From the sequence record SRR20825006_492: 20,000 nt of DNA; one strand, given 5' to 3'. Below, one piece after another: positions 3 through 17,361 of the stretch. Within the stretch, counting starts at the first letter, position 1. Each line of letters opens with the position of its first letter. The position numbers were made by a program, and so were the translations under genes. The notes beneath the pieces were generated by a model, which had not been told where the DNA came from, did not search any database, and worked only from the letters and a program-made list of their open reading frames with translations.

Positions 3-1901
3 GATTATGCTCCAGAAAATGCCTTTTACTTTTCCATTAATAGTGAATCTGTATATTTTAGATCATTAGATATTATAGAGAATAACTGGGTATTTTTGAC
101 CGCAACCTATGATGGTCAGCAAGTGAAGCTTTTTCTTAATGGGGAGCTTAAAGCTATTAAAAAATTGGAGACGGAATCTTTTGTAACCGAGTCTGATTTA
201 TATATAGCTGGTAAACCAGGATATGGAAAATACGAAAAAGGCTATGATGGTGCTTTGGATGACCTTTTTCTCTACAACTATGTTTTGTCTGATTCTGCGA
301 TAGCTCAAATTTATGATTTAAATAAAGAAGGTAGAAAATACCCTCCCAAGTTATTAGTCAATCTGGATTTAAAAGATTCTCTTGTTATCTCTAATCATGG
401 TTCTGAAATAGAATTATCAGAGATAGAAGCGGATAAAGGTAGGTTTGAAGAGTCTGGTGGAGCTTTGAAGTTTGGAGATGAATCAGATTATATAAGAATT
501 GTCAATACTGGTGAAAATTTAGACTCTTTGTACTCGGGTATTACTCTTAATGCGTGGGTAAAATTAGCTGACTATTCAGAAGAGCCAATGTCGATAATTG
601 ATAGAAATAGTTCTGGAGACAAAGGTTTTTATCTAGGAATAGTTAATAAAGAATTCATTTTTAAAATAAATAATGCCTCTATCCCTTCTCGGTTTTATCC
701 TAGTAGAGGCAAATGGTATTTGCTTACAGGCACTTTAGAAAATACAGAAATGAGACTCTTTATAGATGGGGAATTAACTTATAAAGGAGAATACTCTGGG
801 AAAATGGAAGTAAGTGATACAGATATTTTCATTGGTAATAACCAAGATCTTAGTAATCCATTTATTGGATTAATTGATGAAATACAGATTTATAATTATG
901 CATTAAGTGACTCTTCAATACGTGAATTATATAGTGATAGATTTCATGGGTACAATTCGGTTGATTCTAAAATATTGGATATTGGTTTCGATAATTCGAT
1001 AGAAGACATGAGTGGGGCTGGTCAAACCTTGCAGGTTAATGGAGGTACTTTTATATCAGATAGATTAAGCCAAACTGAGTCAGCGTATTATTTTGATGGA
1101 GATGATATTACAGTCGTAGACACAGACAATGGTTTTGATTCTCTAAGTAATAGTTTAACAATTAGTTCTTGGGTTATTATGGGTACTAGGGACGGTGTGT
1201 ATCCAAAATCAAATCTTATAAGTAGAATAGATACTGAATTTGATAAATATTCAATATCTATTCAGGAAAGTCCACAACCAAGTTATCAGTATCCTGATTC
1301 AAAAGAGCTATTCTTTCAAATTGATGATGTATCAATTTCTCATAAAGATTTTACAATCAAGCCCGGGTACTGGTTTCATTTTGCAGCTACATATTCCGAT
1401 AATTTAATGAAATTGTATTTAAACGGAGTCAAAGTTAGTGAAAAATTCTATGATGGATTAATCACAGTCTCTGAATCAGATTTACTCATTGGTAATAGTC
1501 AAGACGGTTCAGAACCTTTTAAAGGAGTATTAGATGAAATTCAGATATATAACTATGCCCTTTCTGATAGTGCAATTGCTGATATGATTGATATTGAGGT
1601 CCTTCCAGTAGCTCTTGAAGTGGAAAATGAAGTCCCTTCATCAGTAATACTCAATCAAAACTATCCTAACCCATTTAATCCCACGACTAGCATCTCGTTC
1701 TATTTACCAAAAACTGATTTGGCGAATTTAAAAGTTTACGACTTATTGGGTAGAGAAGTGGCAGTATTGATAAATCAAACTTTACCTTCAGGTGAGCATA
1801 CTTACCACCTTAACGCGAGTGGCTTCTCAACAGGAGTATATTTCTACCGGCTTAGTACCGGGAACGCTGTTATAACTAAAAAAATGCTACTTATTAAATA
1901 A
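3..1901 (+). CDS. Secreted multi-LamG (concanavalin A-like/pentraxin fold) protein with T9SS type A C-terminal sorting domain; 5'-truncated by the window edge
   Basis: The frame is open from base 3 (DYAPENAFYF...NNWVFLTATYDG), so the TTG at 96 is not the true start. There are three LamG-type repeats (W.h.a.tydg..mkLylnG...lDei.iYNyaLSds.I). The C-terminus LNQNYPNPFNPTT...VYDLLGREVA...STGVYFYRL...KKMLLIK is a typical T9SS sorting domain. Confidence 0.88.
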   Translation, partial: DYAPENAFYFSINSESVYFRSLDIIENNWVFLTATYDGQQVKLFLNGELKAIKKLETESFVTESDLYIAGKPGYGKYEKGYDGALDDLFLYNYVLSDSAIAQIYDLNKEGRKYPPKLLVNLDLKDSLVISNHGSEIELSEIEADKGRFEESGGALKFGDESDYIRIVNTGENLDSLYSGITLNAWVKLADYSEEPMSIIDRNSSGDKGFYLGIVNKEFIFKINNASIPSRFYPSRGKWYLLTGTLENTEMRLFIDGELTYKGEYSGKMEVSDTDIFIGNNQDLSNPFIGLIDEIQIYNYALSDSSIRELYSDRFHGYNSVDSKILDIGFDNSIEDMSGAGQTLQVNGGTFISDRLSQTESAYYFDGDDITVVDTDNGFDSLSNSLTISSWVIMGTRDGVYPKSNLISRIDTEFDKYSISIQESPQPSYQYPDSKELFFQIDDVSISHKDFTIKPGYWFHFAATYSDNLMKLYLNGVKVSEKFYDGLITVSESDLLIGNSQDGSEPFKGVLDEIQIYNYALSDSAIADMIDIEVLPVALEVENEVPSSVILNQNYPNPFNPTTSISFYLPKTDLANLKVYDLLGREVAVLINQTLPSGEHTYHLNASGFSTGVYFYRLSTGNAVITKKMLLIK

Positions 1902-1931
1902 TAAATCATTTCAAAAAACATTCATCTCATT

Positions 1932-1964
1932 AAAAAAGAAGCCTCTTATCGGGAGGCTTCTTTT
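1932..1964. terminator. Bidirectional intrinsic terminator between the LamG gene and ftsZ
   Basis: AAAAGAAGCCTC (1934-1945) and GAGGCTTCTTTT (1953-1964) form a perfect 12-bp inverted repeat with a 7-nt loop. T-tracts follow on both strands, and it lies between convergent genes. Confidence 0.9.
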
Positions 1965-2105
1965 GTTGTTAGCAATCTATAGCCTATCTGTATAAAACAG
2001 ACAATGAGCTATAATCCAGTAAATTCAATGTTCATAATCTGGCAATTGGAGATTCCTATTCCAAGGCGTCTTACAACTACCAGGTATCCATCATAATTAA
2101 AAAGT
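1932..2105 (-). ncRNA. Candidate structured 3'-UTR / 3'-derived small RNA of the dcw operon
   Basis: Two hairpins (2039-2083 and 1978-2013) have mismatches that are G-U pairs only on the minus strand, and are followed by the terminator. The region contains segments complementary to the mraZ, ftsA and ftsZ leaders. No expression evidence. Confidence 0.4.
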
Positions 2106-3449
2106 TTAATCCATGATTTTGCGTAAGAACGCTGGTTGATCAGAATCATCTTTTTTAATGCGTTCTGTACGGCTTTGGAAAGGAGCGATGTTGTCTTTTG
2201 GTGCTTGTCTTTCTTCAGCTTTGTATTCCTCTTCGCGATAATCATTTGACTCATTGCGGTCAATAGCGTCATCATTTTTTGCAGATAAATCACGTCTTAA
2301 GTAAGAAGGAGTGTCTAATCTTTTTAGATTTCCTTCCCCTTTGTAATAATCATTTGATGTGCGATTAAAACGAGATGGAACTTCATCTACTTTAGCTGTC
2401 TGAGTGCGAGCGATATTTTCAGCAGCAGCTCTAAGAGGAGCGTTTGGTGCTACTTTTACTGTAGTACGATCTTCAGTAAGTTCAAACCCAGTAGCAATTA
2501 CTGTTACACGGATTTCGTCACCAAAGGACTCATCAAGAACTGTTCCTAGAATAATCTCTGCGTTGTCGCCAGCTTCTTGCTGTACAATACTTGTAGCAGT
2601 GGTTGTTTCGCGCATTCCTAAACCGGAACCTGCTGAGATGTTAACCAATACACTTCTTGCACCGCGAATACTTACGCCGTCGAGTAGTGGAGAGTTTATA
2701 GCAGCACGAGCAGCGATTTCTGCACGGTCAGGACCTTCAGCTGTAGCTGAGCCCATAATTGCAGCACCACCGTCTGTCATCGTTGTTCTTACATCTGCAA
2801 AATCGAGGTTTATTAAGCCTGGCATTAGGATGAGGTCGCTGATACCACGTGTGGCATTATAAAGCACCTCGTTTGCTAGTGCAAAAGCTTCAACTAAAGA
2901 AGTATTTTCGTCGGCAATGTCGAGCAAACGTTCGTTTGGAATAACAATTACCGTATCGCAGTTTTTTTTAAGCTCTGTAATTCCTTCTAGTGCATAACGC
3001 TTACGGATTTTACCCTCACACTCAAATGGTGTTGTGATGATACCAACGGTTAAAATGCCTTTACGTTTTGCCATGCCAGCAACAACGGGTGCACCGCCAG
3101 TTCCTGTTCCACCGCCCATTCCTGCAGTCACAAAAATCATATCTGCAGTTTCGAGTGATTCCTCGATCTCATGTCGGTTTTCTTCAATAGCTTCTCGGCC
3201 AACTTCTGGTCGAGCTCCGGCGCCTAATCCATTGGTTAGTGTAGTACCAACCTGAATTTTGATATTAGCCTTGCTATTTTTTAGTGCTTGGGCGTCTGTG
3301 TTCAGTGCGATATACTCTACACTGTCGAGACCCATATTTATCATATTATTGATAGCGTTTCCGCCACCGCCGCCTACGCCGATTACTTTTATCTTAGCGT
3401 TTTCTTGGCTCTGTTCGTCAAAAAAGAAACGAGTATTATGGTTAGCCAT
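2106..3449 (-). CDS. ftsZ: Cell division GTPase FtsZ
   Basis: IKVIGVGGGGGNA, tubulin signature GGGTGTG, T7 loop INLDFADV, C-terminal PAFLRK; last gene after ftsA. Confidence 0.99.
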   Translation of the reverse strand: MANHNTRFFFDEQSQENAKIKVIGVGGGGGNAINNMINMGLDSVEYIALNTDAQALKNSKANIKIQVGTTLTNGLGAGARPEVGREAIEENRHEIEESLETADMIFVTAGMGGGTGTGGAPVVAGMAKRKGILTVGIITTPFECEGKIRKRYALEGITELKKNCDTVIVIPNERLLDIADENTSLVEAFALANEVLYNATRGISDLILMPGLINLDFADVRTTMTDGGAAIMGSATAEGPDRAEIAARAAINSPLLDGVSIRGARSVLVNISAGSGLGMRETTTATSIVQQEAGDNAEIILGTVLDESFGDEIRVTVIATGFELTEDRTTVKVAPNAPLRAAAENIARTQTAKVDEVPSRFNRTSNDYYKGEGNLKRLDTPSYLRRDLSAKNDDAIDRNESNDYREEEYKAEERQAPKDNIAPFQSRTERIKKDDSDQPAFLRKIMD

Positions 3450-3454
3450 GATAA

Positions 3455-3459
3455 CTCCT
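3455..3459 (-). promoter_or_regulatory. Shine-Dalgarno sequence of ftsZ
   Basis: AGGAG lies 5 nt upstream of the ATG (ACAGGAGTTATCATG). Confidence 0.7.
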
Positions 3460-3509
3460 GTTTATATTATTTTACTGGATTATTATTTGTTGTATTTGAT
3501 TGCTGATTG

Positions 3510-4769
3510 CTAAAGTTCTTTGAACCAACTCTTCATGCGGTCGGCAATTTTGCCCATCACCTGTTCCATATTGTTTCCGCCTTTTTGAGAAGTTGATACA
3601 ATATTTTTTTTGCTGTCTGCGCCTGTTTTTAAAGCATGCACAACTAAGCCTACACCCGTGGCATAAACAGGGCTATTTACTTCCTCAACTAATCCACCGG
3701 TAAGACCAAGTGGAATTCCCACTTTTGCATCCATACCTAGGATTTCGTTAGCCAATGGACATATATTTTTAATAAGAGCGCCTCCACCAGTTAGTACCAC
3801 ACCAGCACTTAGTGAATCAGAATAACCACTGCGCTTAATTTCGATGCCAACTATCTCGAGGATTTCTTCCATTCTAGCTTGAATAATTTTAGCTAGAATG
3901 CTCTTTGTAATTTCTTTGGGTGGACGACCAGCAATTCCAGGAACGGTAATTACTTCGTCTTCTTGAATCATATCTGCAAAGCTTTCGCCATGTTTTCTTT
4001 TGAGTGATTCTGCTTGGTCGTCAAGTACGCTTAATCCTAAACGGATATCATCGGTTACTTTTTGCCCTGCAATTGCAATTACTGCAGTATGGCGAATCGT
4101 ATTATCTTGAAAAATAGCTACATCAGTAGTGCCTCCACCAATATCAACGAGAACAACGCCAGCTTCTTTTTCTTCTTCGTCTAGAACAGAATATGAAGAT
4201 GCTAGTGGCTCAAGAATGATATCTGCTACTTGGTAACCTGCTCGTTCAACACATCTATAAATATTTTTTGCCGCCGAAACTAAACCAGTGATAATGTGAA
4301 CCTCAGCTTCCATACGCATTCCGCTCATCCCAACAGGGTCACTGATGCCGTCTTGGCCATCAACCACAAATTCCTGAGGAATTACGTGTAGAATTTGTTG
4401 ATCGGTAGGCAGCATGATGCGTTGACAATCTTCCAACAGACGTTCTACATCATGTGCTGTAATTTCGTTATCGCGGTTATTAATAGTAATTACGCCTTTG
4501 CTACGCATGCTACGAATGTGGTCGCCAGCAATACCAACATTAACAGAATTAACCTGAATACCTGATGCAAGTTCAGCCTGAGCTATAGCATCTTTTATGG
4601 CATTTACCGTTTTATCGATGTTTACAACAACACCACGATTAAGACCTTCACTAGGAGATTTACCAACTCCTAGAATGTTAATTCGATTATGTTCAATTGA
4701 AGCTACGATTGCACAAATCTTAGTAGTTCCGATGTCCAGCCCTACCATTATGTTTTCTTGTTCTGACAT
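3510..4769 (-). CDS. ftsA: Cell division protein FtsA
   Basis: VGLDIGTTKI, VDIGGGTTD and VLTGGGA actin-fold motifs; C-terminal amphipathic helix (RMKSWFKEL); lies between ftsQ and ftsZ. Confidence 0.99.
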   Translation of the reverse strand: MSEQENIMVGLDIGTTKICAIVASIEHNRINILGVGKSPSEGLNRGVVVNIDKTVNAIKDAIAQAELASGIQVNSVNVGIAGDHIRSMRSKGVITINNRDNEITAHDVERLLEDCQRIMLPTDQQILHVIPQEFVVDGQDGISDPVGMSGMRMEAEVHIITGLVSAAKNIYRCVERAGYQVADIILEPLASSYSVLDEEEKEAGVVLVDIGGGTTDVAIFQDNTIRHTAVIAIAGQKVTDDIRLGLSVLDDQAESLKRKHGESFADMIQEDEVITVPGIAGRPPKEITKSILAKIIQARMEEILEIVGIEIKRSGYSDSLSAGVVLTGGGALIKNICPLANEILGMDAKVGIPLGLTGGLVEEVNSPVYATGVGLVVHALKTGADSKKNIVSTSQKGGNNMEQVMGKIADRMKSWFKEL

Positions 4770-4834
4770 GTCAGTACCGGTGTATATTATTGATTGCTAA
4801 ATTGGTTCTAGTATCAGGTGTTAAATATGTTTTG

Positions 4835-13286: not shown

Positions 13287-15443
13287 TTATCTTTTATCCG
13301 ATTGAGATACAAATTCTAGTGATTTCGCTTTACCACGTAAAGTTATAGTGCTGTTTAAGCGCATTTTTTCTCCCTTGAGAGGAAATTGAGCATAAACGGT
13401 TCCAGAGCCAATCATTTTGGTATTAAAGCCAAGTTCACCAAGTAAATTATTGGCAGCTCGCATATTCATTCCACGTAACTCAGGAACTATTACAATCCCT
13501 TTATTTGTGCTTGCACTATCAGCGGGAACATAGGTTTCAGAAAGGGTGAGAATAATTTTATGTCCAGCCTCAATGGGGTTTCCAGCTTCAATACTTTGAC
13601 TAACTATAGAGCCAGTTTTTCCTTTAAATTTAAATGGGATATCGAGTTCGCCCAATAGGTATTCGGATTGATTTTTTTCTAAACCGACTAAACTCGGTAC
13701 ACGAACAACCTCTTCAGCATCTTGTTCCGCTTGAGTCAAATTGCGTTGAATATCATTATCTAAACCGGCAATTCTCTTAGTAGTTTCTCTAAAAATTGGC
13801 GCGGCAACTACGCCACCGTATCCACTTGTCTTTGGCTCGTTAAGCATGATTAAGCAAACATATTTGGGGTCATCAACGGGGAAAAACCCTATAAATGAAG
13901 CTAAATATCTATTGGTATAGCGGCCGTCAACAACTTTCTTAGCGGTTCCTGTTTTACCCGCAATTCTGAGTCCGTTAATCTGAGCAGCGTCTCCAGTTCC
14001 AGAATCACTAACTACACTTTCAAAAACAGGTAGTAATTTCTTTAACGTACTTTCTTTGGCAACTCTTCTAATTTCTGTAGGCTCGTTTCTAAGAATTACT
14101 TCTCCATTTTCATTCTCAATATAATCTACAACGTAAGGGCGCATCATAATGCCCTTATTCGCAAAAGCTGAATAGGCTTGAGCTACTTGAAGCGGTGTTG
14201 CAAGAACCTCATAACCATGCGACATCCACGGTAAACTAACTAAACTCCAGTCGTAGGGCTTTTTTAAAGAACCAGCTACTTCTCCAGATAAATCAATCTG
14301 TGTTTCGGAACCAAACCCAAGATTTCTAACATATTGATAGAATACTTTAGGCTTTAAACGCATCGCAATTTCAGCAGTTGCCACATTTGAAGACTTCTGT
14401 ATAACCTGCTGGAAGTTGATGTTTCCGAGTGGATCATGATCTCGTAATGTGAGGCCATGAATTTGAACCTCACCATTAGCTGGCGTTTCAAAAATCTCAT
14501 TAAAATCTACTACATTTTGCTCAACGGCAGCAATAGCAGTTATTAACTTGAACGTTGAGCCAGGCTCAACCATATCAGAAATAGCAAAATTTCTACGATT
14601 TATATCTTCATCATTTCCTGGGAAATTAGGATCATAAGTTGGGTAATTAGCCATCGCTTTAATAGCGCCTGTCCTAGGGTCAATAATTATTCCTGTTCCA
14701 TACAGTGAGGATGTTTTCTCAACTCCATTTTTTAATTCATCTTCTAGGATGGCTTGGATATAAGAATCGATAGTAGTGTGAAGCGAATTTCCATTTTCTG
14801 GAAGTTTTTTGGGAGCGCCCACATAGGCTGAAATTCTATTTCTAGGATCGCGTCTCACTTGTTGTAGGCCATCAGCACCTTTTAGCTCGTCGTTGTAATA
14901 AGCTTCAAGCCCGATTCTACCATCAGTGTTATGGTTTACAAAGCCTAAGGTGTGAGCTGCTAAACTGCCAAAAGTATATTTTCTACGGAAACTCTCTTCA
15001 ATTATTACACCCTTAATATTCAAATTTTTGATAACATCTCGAGCAACAGGCGAAAGGTTTTTTGCTAGGATGATATATCTAGAGCGAGAAGGCGCACTTT
15101 TAATTTTGTTGTTAAAATCTGATAGTGGCTGCTTTGTTACAGTAGCAAGAGTTTTAGTAAGCTCGTTAATCTGAGCTTTAGAAAGCCCGTCAATTTTTGG
15201 ATCGAGCGCAATTTGGTAGTTGGCAGCGTTTGTAGCTAACAAAGTGCCGTTCACATCATAAATATTACCGCGCTGAGCAGGTATTGGAATAGAATCTATC
15301 GCTTGTTGACTCCAAAGCGTACGCAGCTCATCACCATTCAGGTAATTTATCCTGAAAAGCTGAAACGCAAGTACACAAGGAATGAGCAAAAGTAGCCCAA
15401 ACACAAGAAACATACGGCTCAATATGGCTGTTCTATCCGTCAT
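13287..15443 (-). CDS. ftsI: Class B penicillin-binding protein (FtsI/PBP3-type) with two C-terminal PASTA domains
   Basis: N-terminal TM, RGNIYD, catalytic STFK / SSN / KTGT motifs. Two PASTA-like repeats start at VPSLVGL and VPELRGM. Confidence 0.95.
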   Translation of the reverse strand: MTDRTAILSRMFLVFGLLLLIPCVLAFQLFRINYLNGDELRTLWSQQAIDSIPIPAQRGNIYDVNGTLLATNAANYQIALDPKIDGLSKAQINELTKTLATVTKQPLSDFNNKIKSAPSRSRYIILAKNLSPVARDVIKNLNIKGVIIEESFRRKYTFGSLAAHTLGFVNHNTDGRIGLEAYYNDELKGADGLQQVRRDPRNRISAYVGAPKKLPENGNSLHTTIDSYIQAILEDELKNGVEKTSSLYGTGIIIDPRTGAIKAMANYPTYDPNFPGNDEDINRRNFAISDMVEPGSTFKLITAIAAVEQNVVDFNEIFETPANGEVQIHGLTLRDHDPLGNINFQQVIQKSSNVATAEIAMRLKPKVFYQYVRNLGFGSETQIDLSGEVAGSLKKPYDWSLVSLPWMSHGYEVLATPLQVAQAYSAFANKGIMMRPYVVDYIENENGEVILRNEPTEIRRVAKESTLKKLLPVFESVVSDSGTGDAAQINGLRIAGKTGTAKKVVDGRYTNRYLASFIGFFPVDDPKYVCLIMLNEPKTSGYGGVVAAPIFRETTKRIAGLDNDIQRNLTQAEQDAEEVVRVPSLVGLEKNQSEYLLGELDIPFKFKGKTGSIVSQSIEAGNPIEAGHKIILTLSETYVPADSASTNKGIVIVPELRGMNMRAANNLLGELGFNTKMIGSGTVYAQFPLKGEKMRLNSTITLRGKAKSLEFVSQSDKR

Positions 15444-15859
15444 TAATCATTTATAGTTATTACTTTATCTGCTGGTCCACCATTTACAAAGCCTGCTTGT
15501 TCAGCATTTCTGTAAATATCTGCTGGCCCAACCATTTTGTCGTACTGTAATTTTAAAGCATCATGTTTACTTCGCGCTTTGTTGAACTCTACTTCCAGAA
15601 TTTGAACTTCTTCTAAGAGGCTCTGTGTAGCAAAAACGTGTGTCAAATACATGAATCCGAACACGCCAGCTATTACAGATGCCAAAATTACTTTCCAAGG
15701 TTTGATGTCTTGGATTCTGCTTTTTACAGAACTTGATTTTACTTTAGTAGCGGTTCTTTTGCTTGTATGGGATGGAGTTGGGGACTCTACATTTGGCTTA
15801 TGAACTCTACGAAGGTTAGGTCGAGTTTCACGCTTACGAAGTGGTGATTGAACGATCAT
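15443..15859 (-). CDS. ftsL: Probable FtsL-like cell division protein
   Basis: Lies between rsmH and ftsI. Basic N-terminus, single TM (VILASVIAGVFGFMYL), then a heptad coiled coil. GGAGG SD at 15866-15870. Called from synteny and topology rather than strong homology. Confidence 0.7.
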   Translation of the reverse strand: MIVQSPLRKRETRPNLRRVHKPNVESPTPSHTSKRTATKVKSSSVKSRIQDIKPWKVILASVIAGVFGFMYLTHVFATQSLLEEVQILEVEFNKARSKHDALKLQYDKMVGPADIYRNAEQAGFVNGGPADKVITIND

Positions 15860-16783: not shown

Positions 16784-17254
16784 TTAAGCTCCTTCGCCTT
16801 GATTATTATTACCTAGAACCTGCTCAAAAATTTCTTCAATCGATTCTGGACTCATATTTTCATCTGCTTCATTAAGCTTTTCGGGAGACCATATTTCGAT
16901 ATATTCTCCCATACCAATAAAAACAACTTTTGAATCTATGCCTGAGTAGGTGAGATGATCTGTGGGGATGGCAATTCGATTCTGTTTGTCGAGGGAGGCA
17001 TCTTCTGCAAAACGTAGGAAGTAACGCTTAGCTAAACGGCCGTTTTTACTGAAAGAATTAATGTGAGAAAGCTTGTCTTCAACAAGTTCCCACTCATTTT
17101 CTGGGTATAGATACAGGCATTCTTCGGTTTGACCACGTACTACTGTGAAGCGGTCTTGTGCGTCGGGACTGAGATTTTTACGCAGTTTGGCAGGGAAGGC
17201 TACACGACCTTTTTCGTCTATACTATGCTCGTATTGTCCTTTAAAGCTAGGCAC
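16784..17254 (-). CDS. mraZ: dcw cluster transcriptional repressor MraZ
   Basis: FKGQYEHSIDEKGR and LDKQNRI (two DxxxR SpoVT/AbrB repeats), IEIW. Start reassigned to GTG 17254 (MPSFKGQY, 156 aa), because the ORF-track start at 17326 falls inside the operator boxes. Confidence 0.97.
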   Translation of the reverse strand: MPSFKGQYEHSIDEKGRVAFPAKLRKNLSPDAQDRFTVVRGQTEECLYLYPENEWELVEDKLSHINSFSKNGRLAKRYFLRFAEDASLDKQNRIAIPTDHLTYSGIDSKVVFIGMGEYIEIWSPEKLNEADENMSPESIEEIFEQVLGNNNQGEGA

Positions 17255-17306
17255 GGCTTTACCAAATGGTTTTAGATTGCTAAAATTTTTGAATCTGGAA
17301 GAAGTC

Positions 17307-17331
17307 CCCACTATCTCCCACTTCACCCCAC
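17307..17331 (-). promoter_or_regulatory. MraZ operator: three GTGGG direct repeats with a 10-bp period
   Basis: The minus strand reads GTGGG-GTGAA-GTGGG-AGATA-GTGGG (17331-17327, 17321-17317, 17311-17307). This matches the known MraZ (G)TGG(G) repeats with ~10-bp spacing and overlaps the predicted transcription start. Confidence 0.88.
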
Positions 17332-17361
17332 AATGTACCCTAAACTATTGTAATGTGTCAA
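17332..17361 (-). promoter_or_regulatory. Sigma70-type promoter of the dcw operon
   Basis: -35 TTGACA (17361-17356), 18-nt spacer, -10 TACATT (17337-17332), immediately followed by the MraZ boxes. Confidence 0.78.

Follow-up and report, generated by a model that had tools for sequence, protein, structure and literature searches.

We asked whether the short complementary segments that lie just before and just after the cell-division gene ftsZ in a Balneola-like bacterium reflect a selected RNA pairing, and if so what such a pairing might do. The window we analysed is the whole 20,000-nucleotide stretch of record SRR20825006_492. A sequence-only reading of it had proposed that two nested helices enclose the ftsZ message much as processing stems enclose rRNAs, allowing either excision or stabilisation of a monocistronic ftsZ mRNA by a nuclease such as RNase III, or translational control, and that this could help supply FtsZ in excess over FtsA. 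The observation itself proved exact, while its interpretation is only partly supported by our data.

Complementary segments around ftsZ

The segment at 3471-3483 (TTTACTGGATTAT) is the exact reverse complement of 2011-2023, and 3505-3513 (GATTGCTAA) is that of 1969-1977; neither match extends further. Because ftsZ and ftsA lie on the minus strand, the order on the mRNA is A, B, ftsZ, B', a hairpin, A' and then the terminator, and the helices are nested as had been claimed (Table 1). Helix B ends 21 nt before the ATG and 11 nt upstream of the Shine-Dalgarno (SD) sequence, which is left free, so direct occlusion of the ribosome site is not evident in the window. To assess chance, we made 5000 dinucleotide shuffles of a 64-nt leader against a 140-nt trailer. 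Runs of 9-10 were common, however a longest run of 13 or more arose in only 11/5000 (0.0022), two nested runs of 9 or more in 17/5000 (0.0034), and a run of 13 together with a nested run of 9 or more in 0/5000.

Table 1. Features of the ftsZ region and of related sites in the window (position 1 is the first letter of the window)
Position	Strand	Feature	Support
2106..3449	-	ftsZ coding sequence (447 aa)	ORF list; Pfam Tubulin 4.8e-51, FtsZ_C 4.9e-29
3510..4769	-	ftsA coding sequence (419 aa), directly upstream on the same strand	ORF list; Pfam FtsA, SHS2_FTSA
3450..3509	-	ftsA-ftsZ spacer, i.e. the ftsZ 5' leader (60 nt), A-rich and predicted almost unstructured	Leader alone folds at -2.6 kcal/mol
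3505..3513	-	Helix A, leader arm UUAGCAAUC; overlaps the ftsA stop codon UAG (3512-3510)	Exact complement of 1969-1977; the copy paired in the cofold
3498..3504	-	Second tandem copy of AGCAAUC	The copy conserved in position in most relatives
3471..3483	-	Helix B, leader arm AUAAUCCAGUAAA	Core AUCCAGUAAA conserved
3455..3459	-	SD AGGAG of ftsZ, not covered by helix B	Read from the sequence; conserved in the leader alignment
2039..2083	-	3'UTR domain H1: a stem enclosing a small conserved hairpin (CCUUGGAAUAGG here, CCAUGGGAAUGG in most relatives)	Cofold structure; inner hairpin covaries (CG/GC, AU/UA)
2011..2023	-	Helix B, trailer arm UUUACUGGAUUAU (B')	Unpaired and nearly invariant within the 3'UTR
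1978..2010	-	P2: stem UAUAGC/GCUAUA closing a variable hairpin, between B' and A'	RNAalifold: 5 invariant pairs plus 2 covarying pairs (CG/UA/UG); inserts vary in length and sequence
1969..1977	-	Helix A, trailer arm GAUUGCUAA (A', the seed), a few nt upstream of the terminator	Unpaired and invariant
1932..1964 (approximate)	.	Hairpin plus U-run: intrinsic terminator of ftsZ, bidirectional and shared with the converging T9SS gene 96-1901(+)	Covarying stem in RNAalifold; cofold structure
4792..4800	-	UUAGCAAUC in the ftsA leader, ending 22 nt before the ftsA ATG; complementary to A'	AGCAATC within 60 nt of the ftsA start in 54 of 72 loci
17273..17283	-	UUAGCAAUCUA in the mraZ leader, an 11-nt exact complement of trailer UAGAUUGCUAA; downstream of a TTGACA promoter-like site and three GTGGG boxes	AGCAATC in 25 of 31 mraZ upstream regions, including all 24 of the genus

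RNAcofold predicts the same multi-branch closure, with helices A and B formed and P2 and the terminator intact. The ddG was -21.3, against -8.3 +/- 2.7 for 60 shuffled leaders, none of which was as low (0/60). The cofold also predicts a third helix, between the start-codon region and UAUGAUGG just after the stop codon, however this is not visibly conserved and we make no claim for it. A' and B' lie upstream of the terminator hairpin and U-run, and the leader arms lie in the ftsA-ftsZ spacer such that any transcript entering from ftsA holds them. A consensus scan found no sigma-70-like promoter on the minus strand in 3500-3650 and none in the 3'UTR; by its own rule it also found 0 terminator-like sites, although the hairpin and U-run are evident. 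Three RNA-labelled sequencing runs with small shares yielded only short assembled contigs on parts of the CDS and one 175-nt piece over 3426-3600 from a relative, with no cover of the 3'UTR and no transcript ends.

Conservation of the complementarity

Conserved complementarity in relatives had been named beforehand as a test of the idea. The relatives found were Balneola, Gracilimonas and other Balneolaceae. Of 90 distinct ftsZ loci of Balneolaceae and relatives, 70 carry both helix-B arms and 20 carry neither, and never one without the other, while 63 carry both helix-A arms; the surrounding UTR sequence has diverged. TAGATTGCTAA with at most 1 mismatch is present in 89 of the 90 trailers, although the match at one locus (L027) is probably spurious. 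In most relatives the helices are 10-11 and 7 bp, compared to 13 and 9 bp here. In 32 aligned 3'UTRs, A' and B' are unpaired, invariant stretches flanking a covarying hairpin just upstream of the terminator, and H1, P2 and the terminator show compensatory changes at 13 of 21 predicted pairs.

We next looked for changes within the helices themselves. On an ftsZ tree of 25 rows, one helix-B pair changed from C-G to U-A twice independently (loci L012 and L019) and to U.G three times (L005, L051 and L086), but never to C-A. In contrast, alignment-based covariation within Balneolaceae is weak. After excluding the window, L001, L003 and L004, dropping rows without anchors and merging identical rows, 30 distinct rows remained for B and 21 for A. 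Standard pairs made up 84% for B and 80% for A, against 19-45% and 8-32% when the arms were slid, however column shuffles reached the observed value in 298/500 for B and 500/500 for A. The helix cores are almost invariant and too uniform to be informative here, and sequence conservation alone could have another cause. Helix A has 4 A-C cells against 2 G.U cells, and in the L086-L097 clade it carries an internal mismatch. RNAduplex z-scores over 87 loci were noisy (median z -2.2, z below -3 in 30 of 87), because our terminator finder cut many trailers short and RNAduplex allowed huge interior loops, and we do not rely on them.

Other families keep a leader-trailer duplex with different sequences: CCAUAAGCAAUA/UAUUGCUUAUGG, CAAUCUACAU/AUGUAGAUUG, AUAAACAGGU/ACCUGUUUAU, CAAUCAGGG/CCCUGAUUG, CGAUACAG/CUGUAUCG and GCUGAACCACAACC. 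In other orders of the class, 9 of 20 loci have a leader hairpin loop UGCUC[AG] together with a trailer hairpin loop [UC]GAGCA, against 0 of 20 for swapped or reversed words, and this includes one compensated variant, UGCUCG/CGAGCA. CCUCC occurs in 13 of 20 of these trailers, against GGAGG in 2 of 20. In some sister lineages the 3'UTR is complementary to the SD itself, as in L177, L186 and, in other orders, CUGGAGGG/CCCUCCAG. Start codons of these distant loci and of those in other classes were set by a simple rule.

To test whether orientation matters, we compared each match to 200 shuffles. The antiparallel complement was significant (p<0.05) in 17/26, 6/11 and 6/20 representatives, whereas the direct, reversed and parallel-complement controls gave 0/26, 2/26 and 0/26, then 0/11 for all three, then 0/20, 0/20 and 1/20. 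We picked these representatives ourselves and kin among them are not independent; in addition, the L027/L028 matches are in a crossing rather than nested order and are individually weak (p=0.06). In other classes of the phylum, ftsZ gave 2 of 20 loci at p<=0.05, the same as the controls (2, 0 and 1), so nothing is seen there.

Interpretation and alternative readings

Taken with some confidence, our reading is that the ftsZ 3'UTR is a structured RNA whose two exposed, invariant stretches (B' = UUUACUGGAU, A' = GAUUGCUAA) flank a hairpin just upstream of the intrinsic terminator and base-pair with two stretches of the ftsZ leader (A = AGCAAUC, B = AUCCAGUAAA). In this view the message, once transcribed to its end, can close into a three-way junction around the ftsZ cistron, as a selected long-range RNA-RNA interaction of the kind described for icaR and hbs. 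We infer that its main effect would be to limit or tune ftsZ translation initiation and nuclease access in the ftsA-ftsZ spacer after the transcript is complete, because in sister lineages the equivalent 3'UTR segment covers the SD. The complementarity, its conservation, its orientation specificity, its replacement by other complementary sequences in other families and its thermodynamic plausibility are shown by our analysis; that the pairing forms in vivo, that it affects translation or mRNA decay, whether it represses or stabilises, and whether it acts in cis, in trans or both remain inferences from sequence.

The proposed purpose of an FtsZ excess over FtsA stays a hypothesis, and the analogy with rRNA processing stems is weak. 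Not foreseen by the sequence-only reading, the same 3'UTR seed also matches the ftsA and mraZ leaders. This and the SD complementarity in sister lineages favour translational control, or a 3'UTR acting on several leaders, over simple excision of a monocistronic message.

A tentative alternative, which overlaps with our reading because cis and trans action can coexist, is that the 3'UTR is cut off and accumulates as a small RNA whose seed GAUUGCUAA, with B' as a second seed, acts in trans on the mraZ, ftsA and ftsZ leaders. This would couple completed dcw transcription to expression of the first and last genes of the cluster. UUAGCAAUC(UA) lies 20-30 nt before the start codons of ftsA and mraZ and is conserved there while its flanks vary, and the seed is unpaired, invariant and next to the terminator, as in 3'UTR-derived sRNAs (PMC9438474). 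Cofold ddG was -13.8 for ftsA (3/60 shuffles as low) and -12.3 for mraZ (2/60). In one relative's genome (G001), TTAGCAATCW gave 37 hits against 19 control hits, mostly inside ORFs; of 30 hits inspected about 7 are intergenic, and 4 of those are the three dcw leaders and the trailer, indicating that the motif is dcw-specific rather than marking a general regulon. However, no conserved promoter is visible inside the 3'UTR, and Hfq (PF17209), which is usual in enterobacterial cases though not strictly defining, was found in 0 of 3 genomes searched (G001, G012 and G043; 99-100% complete). Furthermore, the ftsA and mraZ sites are limited to Balneolaceae, whereas the ftsZ leader-trailer match extends across the order and probably the class, and helix B exists only for ftsZ.

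It is also possible, though we consider it doubtful, that the pairing protects rather than represses, by shielding the spacer or a processed 5' end from endonuclease attack as in B. subtilis hbs, which would stabilise an ftsZ-proximal message and raise FtsZ relative to FtsA. In the window both helices leave the SD and start codon free, an RNase E/G homologue is present in 3 of 3 genomes, and the A/U-rich, unstructured leader is the typical substrate. In contrast, the overlap of the complementary 3'UTR segment with the SD in sister families and orders fits repression better, and RNase Y, the enzyme involved in hbs, is absent from the two Balneola genomes searched.

A similarly unlikely but more far-reaching possibility is that the ftsZ 3'UTR is the hub of an ancient RNA circuit, found across the Rhodothermia class, that governs the whole dcw operon. 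When RNA polymerase reaches the last terminator, the exposed seeds would contact the ftsZ leader and close the cistron, and in Balneolaceae they would also contact the ftsA and mraZ leaders, either by looping the 15-kb transcript or as a released small RNA. Completion of operon transcription would then feed back on translation or decay of its first and last genes and set the FtsZ:FtsA ratio. The interaction would have been rebuilt many times in evolution, as linear seeds, kissing hairpin loops or anti-SD segments, while the principle stayed the same.

We think it improbable that the motifs are DNA sites for a dcw-specific protein, with GATTGCT/AGCAATC upstream of mraZ, ftsA and ftsZ and, inverted, downstream of ftsZ, and the complementarity a by-product of inverted copies. 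The motifs are nearly invariant, the same 7-9-mer recurs before three dcw genes, sometimes in 2-3 copies, and five base pairs of P2 are also sequence-invariant. However, all leader copies are in mRNA sense and the only antisense copy is in the 3'UTR, and the changes at the helix-B pair passed through U.G, which pairs only as RNA of this strand, and ended in U-A twice. Other families keep the complementarity but not the sequence, the arms sit in single-stranded parts of a covarying RNA fold, and B and B' are gained or lost together. Finally, chance complementarity between two A/T-rich non-coding stretches (the window is 38% G+C and the leader 25%) is refuted by conservation over 90 loci and several families, and the rarity of such runs in shuffles also speaks against it.

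Comparison with described systems

In the icaR mRNA of Staphylococcus aureus a 3'UTR segment is complementary to the SD region of its own 5'UTR, and the pairing is proposed to control translation and to create a double-stranded nuclease substrate (PMC3868564). The ftsZ 3'UTR of sister lineages similarly carries an anti-SD (CCUCC, or longer matches over the SD). In the window, however, two nested helices surround a hairpin and the SD is not covered, ftsZ is essential and the last gene of a 15-kb operon rather than a monocistronic regulator gene, the feature is conserved over an order and probably a class, and the seed also matches two other leaders of the operon; for ftsZ the evidence comes from sequence alone. 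The hbs mRNA of Bacillus subtilis uses a 14-bp 5'/3'-UTR interaction that modulates RNase Y cleavage (PMC5737220). Its helix is of similar length to the 13 bp here and likewise joins leader and trailer of a highly expressed housekeeping gene, and because the paired ftsZ leader segment lies upstream of the SD an effect on nuclease access is plausible. Here there is a second helix, the seed is shared with other leaders, and RNase E/G and RNase III are present.

3'UTR-derived small RNAs such as CpxQ, SdhX and NarS (PMC9438474) have a conserved single-stranded seed just upstream of the parental terminator with complementary sites near the start codons of other genes, as seen here for ftsA and mraZ with 9-11-nt matches. 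For ftsZ, however, the strongest target is the parental mRNA's own leader, and we found no evidence for a separate small RNA. DicF, a prophage-derived sRNA that blocks ftsZ translation in E. coli (PMC9438474; PMC5069750), also pairs with the ftsZ 5' region, but it is trans-encoded, horizontally acquired and Hfq-dependent and pairs at the RBS, whereas the putative regulator here is the vertically conserved 3' end of ftsZ's own message. The leader-trailer stems of rRNAs that are cut by RNase III also enclose a long RNA in a loop by nested complementarity, and an RNase III gene is present, however those stems are long, near-continuous duplexes of about two helical turns, while the ftsZ helices are short and separated by a hairpin on one side and a 12-22-nt spacer on the other.

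Only a handful of bacterial mRNAs are known to pair their 3'UTR with their own 5'UTR, of which icaR and hbs are the textbook cases; none of them concerns the central cell-division gene and none is known to be conserved beyond close relatives. We found no description of the ftsZ feature in print: searches on ftsZ mRNA, UTRs and base pairing returned only DicF-type regulation for ftsZ, and the top-ranked papers on transcriptomes or small RNAs in Balneola, Balneolaceae and Gracilimonas were taxonomy, community and genome studies with no RNA-regulation work. Here the complementarity surrounds ftsZ and is kept, with changing sequences, across an order and probably a class of Bacteroidota-related bacteria. 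If it works as proposed, it would give a simple and testable answer to how these bacteria tune FtsZ output from the end of a long operon, and would be a clean natural system for studying long-range RNA pairing in bacteria.

A search of 1800-3700 of the window against Rfam at E up to 10 gave a best hit of 28.7 bits against a gathering score of 60, and 13 related loci gave 0 matches at gathering score. Among the 20 loci from other classes of the phylum there is one outlier, L234, which has a 14-nt match over the SD.

Features of the ftsZ locus and its relatives

The window contains the end of a dcw (cell division and cell wall) cluster on the minus strand, with mraZ, mraW, a 138-aa ORF, a PBP gene, mur genes, ftsQ, ftsA and ftsZ, and a T9SS-tailed lectin-like gene that converges on it from the left. 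The 138-aa ORF has no Pfam match, and by its position between mraW and the PBP gene it is probably FtsL. The sequence-only reading had reported two nested complementary segments in the ftsZ leader and trailer, and this observation was confirmed, both matches being exact. In 5000 dinucleotide shuffles a run of 13 or more occurred 11 times, and a run of 13 plus a nested run of 9 never occurred.

Positions of the ftsZ leader and trailer elements, listed in mRNA order within the transcript, and of related features of the cluster
Feature	Position	Strand	Sequence or remark
mraZ promoter region	17300-17360	minus	TTGACA, about 17 nt, then GGGTACATT, followed by three GTGGG boxes
A' complement in the mraZ leader	17283-17273	minus	UUAGCAAUCUA, 11-nt exact complement
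mraZ	16784-17251	minus	
138-aa ORF	15443-15859	minus	between mraW and the PBP gene
A' complement in the ftsA leader	4800-4792	minus	UUAGCAAUC, 22 nt before the ftsA ATG
ftsA	3510-4769	minus	
Arm A	3513-3505	minus	UUAGCAAUC, overlaps the ftsA stop codon
Arm B	3483-3471	minus	AUAAUCCAGUAAA
Shine-Dalgarno (SD) sequence of ftsZ	3459-3455	minus	AGGAG
ftsZ	2106-3449	minus	followed by a structured 3'UTR domain
Conserved small 3'UTR hairpin within a longer stem (H1)	2039-2083	minus	
Arm B'	2023-2011	minus	UUUACUGGAUUAU
Hairpin between B' and A' (P2)	2010-1978	minus	closed by UAUAGC/GCUAUA
Arm A'	1977-1969	minus	GAUUGCUAA
Terminator hairpin with U-run	about 1964-1932	bidirectional	four bases after A'
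T9SS-tailed lectin-like gene	96-1901		converges on ftsZ

The terminator is a single hairpin with A-runs and U-runs on both sides, which serves both ftsZ and the converging lectin-like gene; a simple terminator scan missed it. A search for related loci identified the relatives as Balneola, Gracilimonas and other Balneolaceae, and together with a search of genomes this gave 91 distinct leader/trailer combinations, 90 of them with a complete trailer.

Conservation of the leader and trailer segments

Among these relatives, FtsZ itself drops to 72-86% identity and the rest of both UTRs diverges freely. Even so, the leader keeps AGCAAUC(AUCUACA) ... AUCCAGUAAA ... AGGAG, and the trailer keeps UUUACUGGAU-UAUAGC-[variable hairpins]-GCUAUA-GAUUGCUAAC-terminator. 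B and B' occur together in 70 of the 90 loci and are both missing in the other 20, whereas A (as an exact AGCAATC) occurs together with A' in 63 of 90. Cultured relatives that carry all four arms include Gracilimonas tropica DSM 19535 (locus L103) and Balneola sp. EhC07 (L048). A' with at most 1 mismatch is found in 89 of 90 loci, although the match in one of them (locus L027) lies far downstream and is probably spurious. Many Gracilimonas-type ftsA-ftsZ spacers (loci L064, L066, L067, L069, L071, L074, L075, L077, L078, L080, L060 and L050) carry one or two inserted repeats of about 100-150 nt with inverted ends (GGAATGAAACCGTCTGACGA ... TCGTCTGACGGATGGAATTCC), which look like miniature mobile elements. 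Each insert is flanked by an AGCAATCA-like copy on both sides, so the ftsZ leader motif may be their target site or may be duplicated by them.

RNAalifold was run on 32 trailers, two of the 34 prepared (L016 and L079) having been left out because of long inserts. The predicted structure consists of a hairpin H1, the P2 stem and the terminator, and 13 of the 21 predicted pairs show compensatory changes. B' and A' are unpaired and invariant in this prediction, which is how seed regions look. The H1 domain holds a conserved small hairpin (columns 57-68 of the trailer alignment; CCAUGGGAAUGG in most relatives, with a GGGA-type loop) inside a longer stem (CCGGCUU...AAGCCGG in many species), which is not part of either leader-trailer helix.

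We next asked whether the pairing, and not just the sequence, is selected. The helix-B pair under the first C of CCAGUAAA is C-G in most loci. On a ftsZ tree of 25 rows it became U-A twice, on branches separated by well-supported forks (L012, L019), and U.G three times (L005, L051, L086), but never C-A; U.G pairs only in RNA of the ftsZ sense strand. The column flanking the 3' end of arm B shows C-G (12), A-U (4) and U-A (3) among 30 distinct rows, with 9 non-pairs. Furthermore, species that have lost AGCAAUC carry AUCUAUA, which pairs with UAUAGAU in a shifted register. However, inside Balneolaceae the helix cores are nearly invariant, and an anchored count of pairs did not beat column shuffles, with 298/500 shuffles reaching the observed value for B and 500/500 for A, although the count does far exceed the slid registers. 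Helix A has more A-C cells (4) than G.U cells (2), and one clade (L086-L097) has an internal mismatch in this helix. The matches in L027 and L028 are in crossing order and individually weak, and a first survey with RNAduplex was technically poor.

Other Balneolales families have different duplexes at the same places, that is, next to the SD in the leader and next to the terminator in the trailer.

Leader/trailer duplexes at ftsZ loci of other Balneolales families
Locus	Duplex	Remark
L182-184	CCAUAAGCAAUA / UAUUGCUUAUGG	11-12 nt
L176	CAAUCUACAU / AUGUAGAUUG	
L177	AUAAACAGGU / ACCUGUUUAU	covers the SD
L186	CAAUCAGGG / CCCUGAUUG	
L178	UAGCAA + CGAUACAG / CUGUAUCG..UUGCUA	nested
L180	UAGCAA + CUGAG / CUCAG..UUGCUA	nested

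In other orders of the same class, which are GC-rich, 9 of 20 loci have a leader hairpin whose loop reads UGCUC[AG] and a trailer hairpin whose loop reads [UC]GAGCA, one of these being a compensated variant (UGCUCG with CGAGCA, L204). With the words swapped or reversed the count is 0 of 20. CCUCC occurs in 13 of 20 trailers, against GGAGG in 2 of 20, and two genomes share a 14-nt match. The core of the conserved duplex seems to have swapped sides between these groups, with AGCAA in the leader and UUGCU in the trailer of Balneolales, whereas in the other orders the leader loop has UUGCU(CA) and the trailer loop (UG)AGCAA. This could be coincidence or a flipped helix.

We also carried out an orientation-controlled test on representatives that we picked. 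The other classes of the phylum show no signal in this test, and the statistic is therefore not inflated for ftsZ loci in general.

Number of representative loci with p<0.05 by 200 shuffles for each orientation of leader-trailer match
Group	Antiparallel complement	Direct	Reversed	Parallel complement
Balneolaceae (n=26)	17	0	2	0
Other Balneolales (n=11)	6	0	0	0
Other orders of the class (n=20)	6	0	0	1
Other classes of the phylum (n=20)	2	2	0	1

Predicted pairing and matches in the ftsA and mraZ leaders

RNAcofold of the 70-nt leader with the 174-nt trailer predicts helix A, helix B, P2 and the terminator all together, with a ddG of -21.3 kcal/mol against -8.3 +/- 2.7 for 60 shuffled leaders, none of which was as low. 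The leader alone is essentially unstructured. The predicted result is a three-way junction, in which the unpaired strand is the 21-nt leader spacer between the paired arms A and B. Because arm A overlaps the ftsA stop codon in this clade, we infer that ribosomes finishing ftsA would melt helix A.

The complement of the A' seed also lies in the leaders of ftsA and mraZ, an extension that was unexpected. In the mraZ leader it sits just downstream of the TTGACA promoter-like site and the three boxes (GTGGGG / GTGGGA / GTGGGG, at 10-11-nt spacing). This promoter region is strongly conserved across the order (loci L116-L145) and looks like an MraZ operator of the E. coli type. AGCAATC is present in 25 of 31 mraZ upstream regions, including all 24 of the genus, and lies within 60 nt of the ftsA start in 54 of 72 loci, and its flanks vary. 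In G001, the nearest genome available for comparison, the 10-mer TTAGCAATCW has 37 hits against 19 control hits. Of the 30 hits inspected, most lie inside ORFs, and the three dcw leaders and the trailer are 4 of about 7 intergenic ones; the motif is therefore dcw-specific. Cofolding with the trailer gave -13.8 kcal/mol for the ftsA leader and -12.3 for the mraZ leader, with 3/60 and 2/60 shuffles as low.

Interpretation and known systems

We are fairly confident that these data reflect a selected 3'UTR-to-leader RNA pairing. The complementarity, its conservation and its orientation specificity are seen directly in the sequences, whereas formation of the pairing in the cell and any effect on translation or decay are inferred. 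We favor an effect in which the pairing tunes or limits translation initiation and nuclease access once the transcript is complete, because sister lineages place the complementary segment on the SD itself. Protection of the spacer in the manner of hbs is the main alternative for this particular window, where the SD is free. RNase III and RNase E/G are present in 3 of 3 genomes searched, whereas Hfq is absent from 3 of 3 and RNase Y is absent from the two Balneola genomes searched. The 3'UTR might also act as a released small RNA on the ftsA and mraZ leaders. The explanations based on DNA sites or on chance are unlikely for the reasons given above. The proposal that the nested segments close the ftsZ mRNA into a loop, for excision, stabilization or translational control, is supported in part, and the finding is broader than the sequence-only reading envisaged.

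The closest cases are icaR (PMC3868564) and hbs (PMC5737220), and both 3'UTR-derived sRNAs and DicF, the known RNA regulator of ftsZ, are treated in PMC9438474. No Rfam family matched. Pairing between a 3'UTR and a leader is already known, and the pairing proposed here differs in that it involves ftsZ, for which our literature searches found no description of a 5'/3'-UTR interaction; the papers examined on Balneolales were taxonomy, community and genome studies with no RNA-regulation work. We regard the finding as one of high interest.

In trailers of the L100-L110 group of Balneolaceae the seed can fold on itself as a 6-bp hairpin (UAGAUU-GCUA-AAUCUA), and the 5' arm of the terminator reads AAAGGAG, like the SD region of the leader. 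So the 3'UTR partly mimics the leader, and alternative structures seem possible. Outside the class, in a locus from another class of the phylum (L234, genome G089), a 14-nt exact complement, ACCACAACAAGGAG, joins the ftsZ leader (ending 6 nt before the ATG and covering the SD) to the trailer (position 72), with p=0.005. This is an isolated case and may be an independent invention of the same arrangement.
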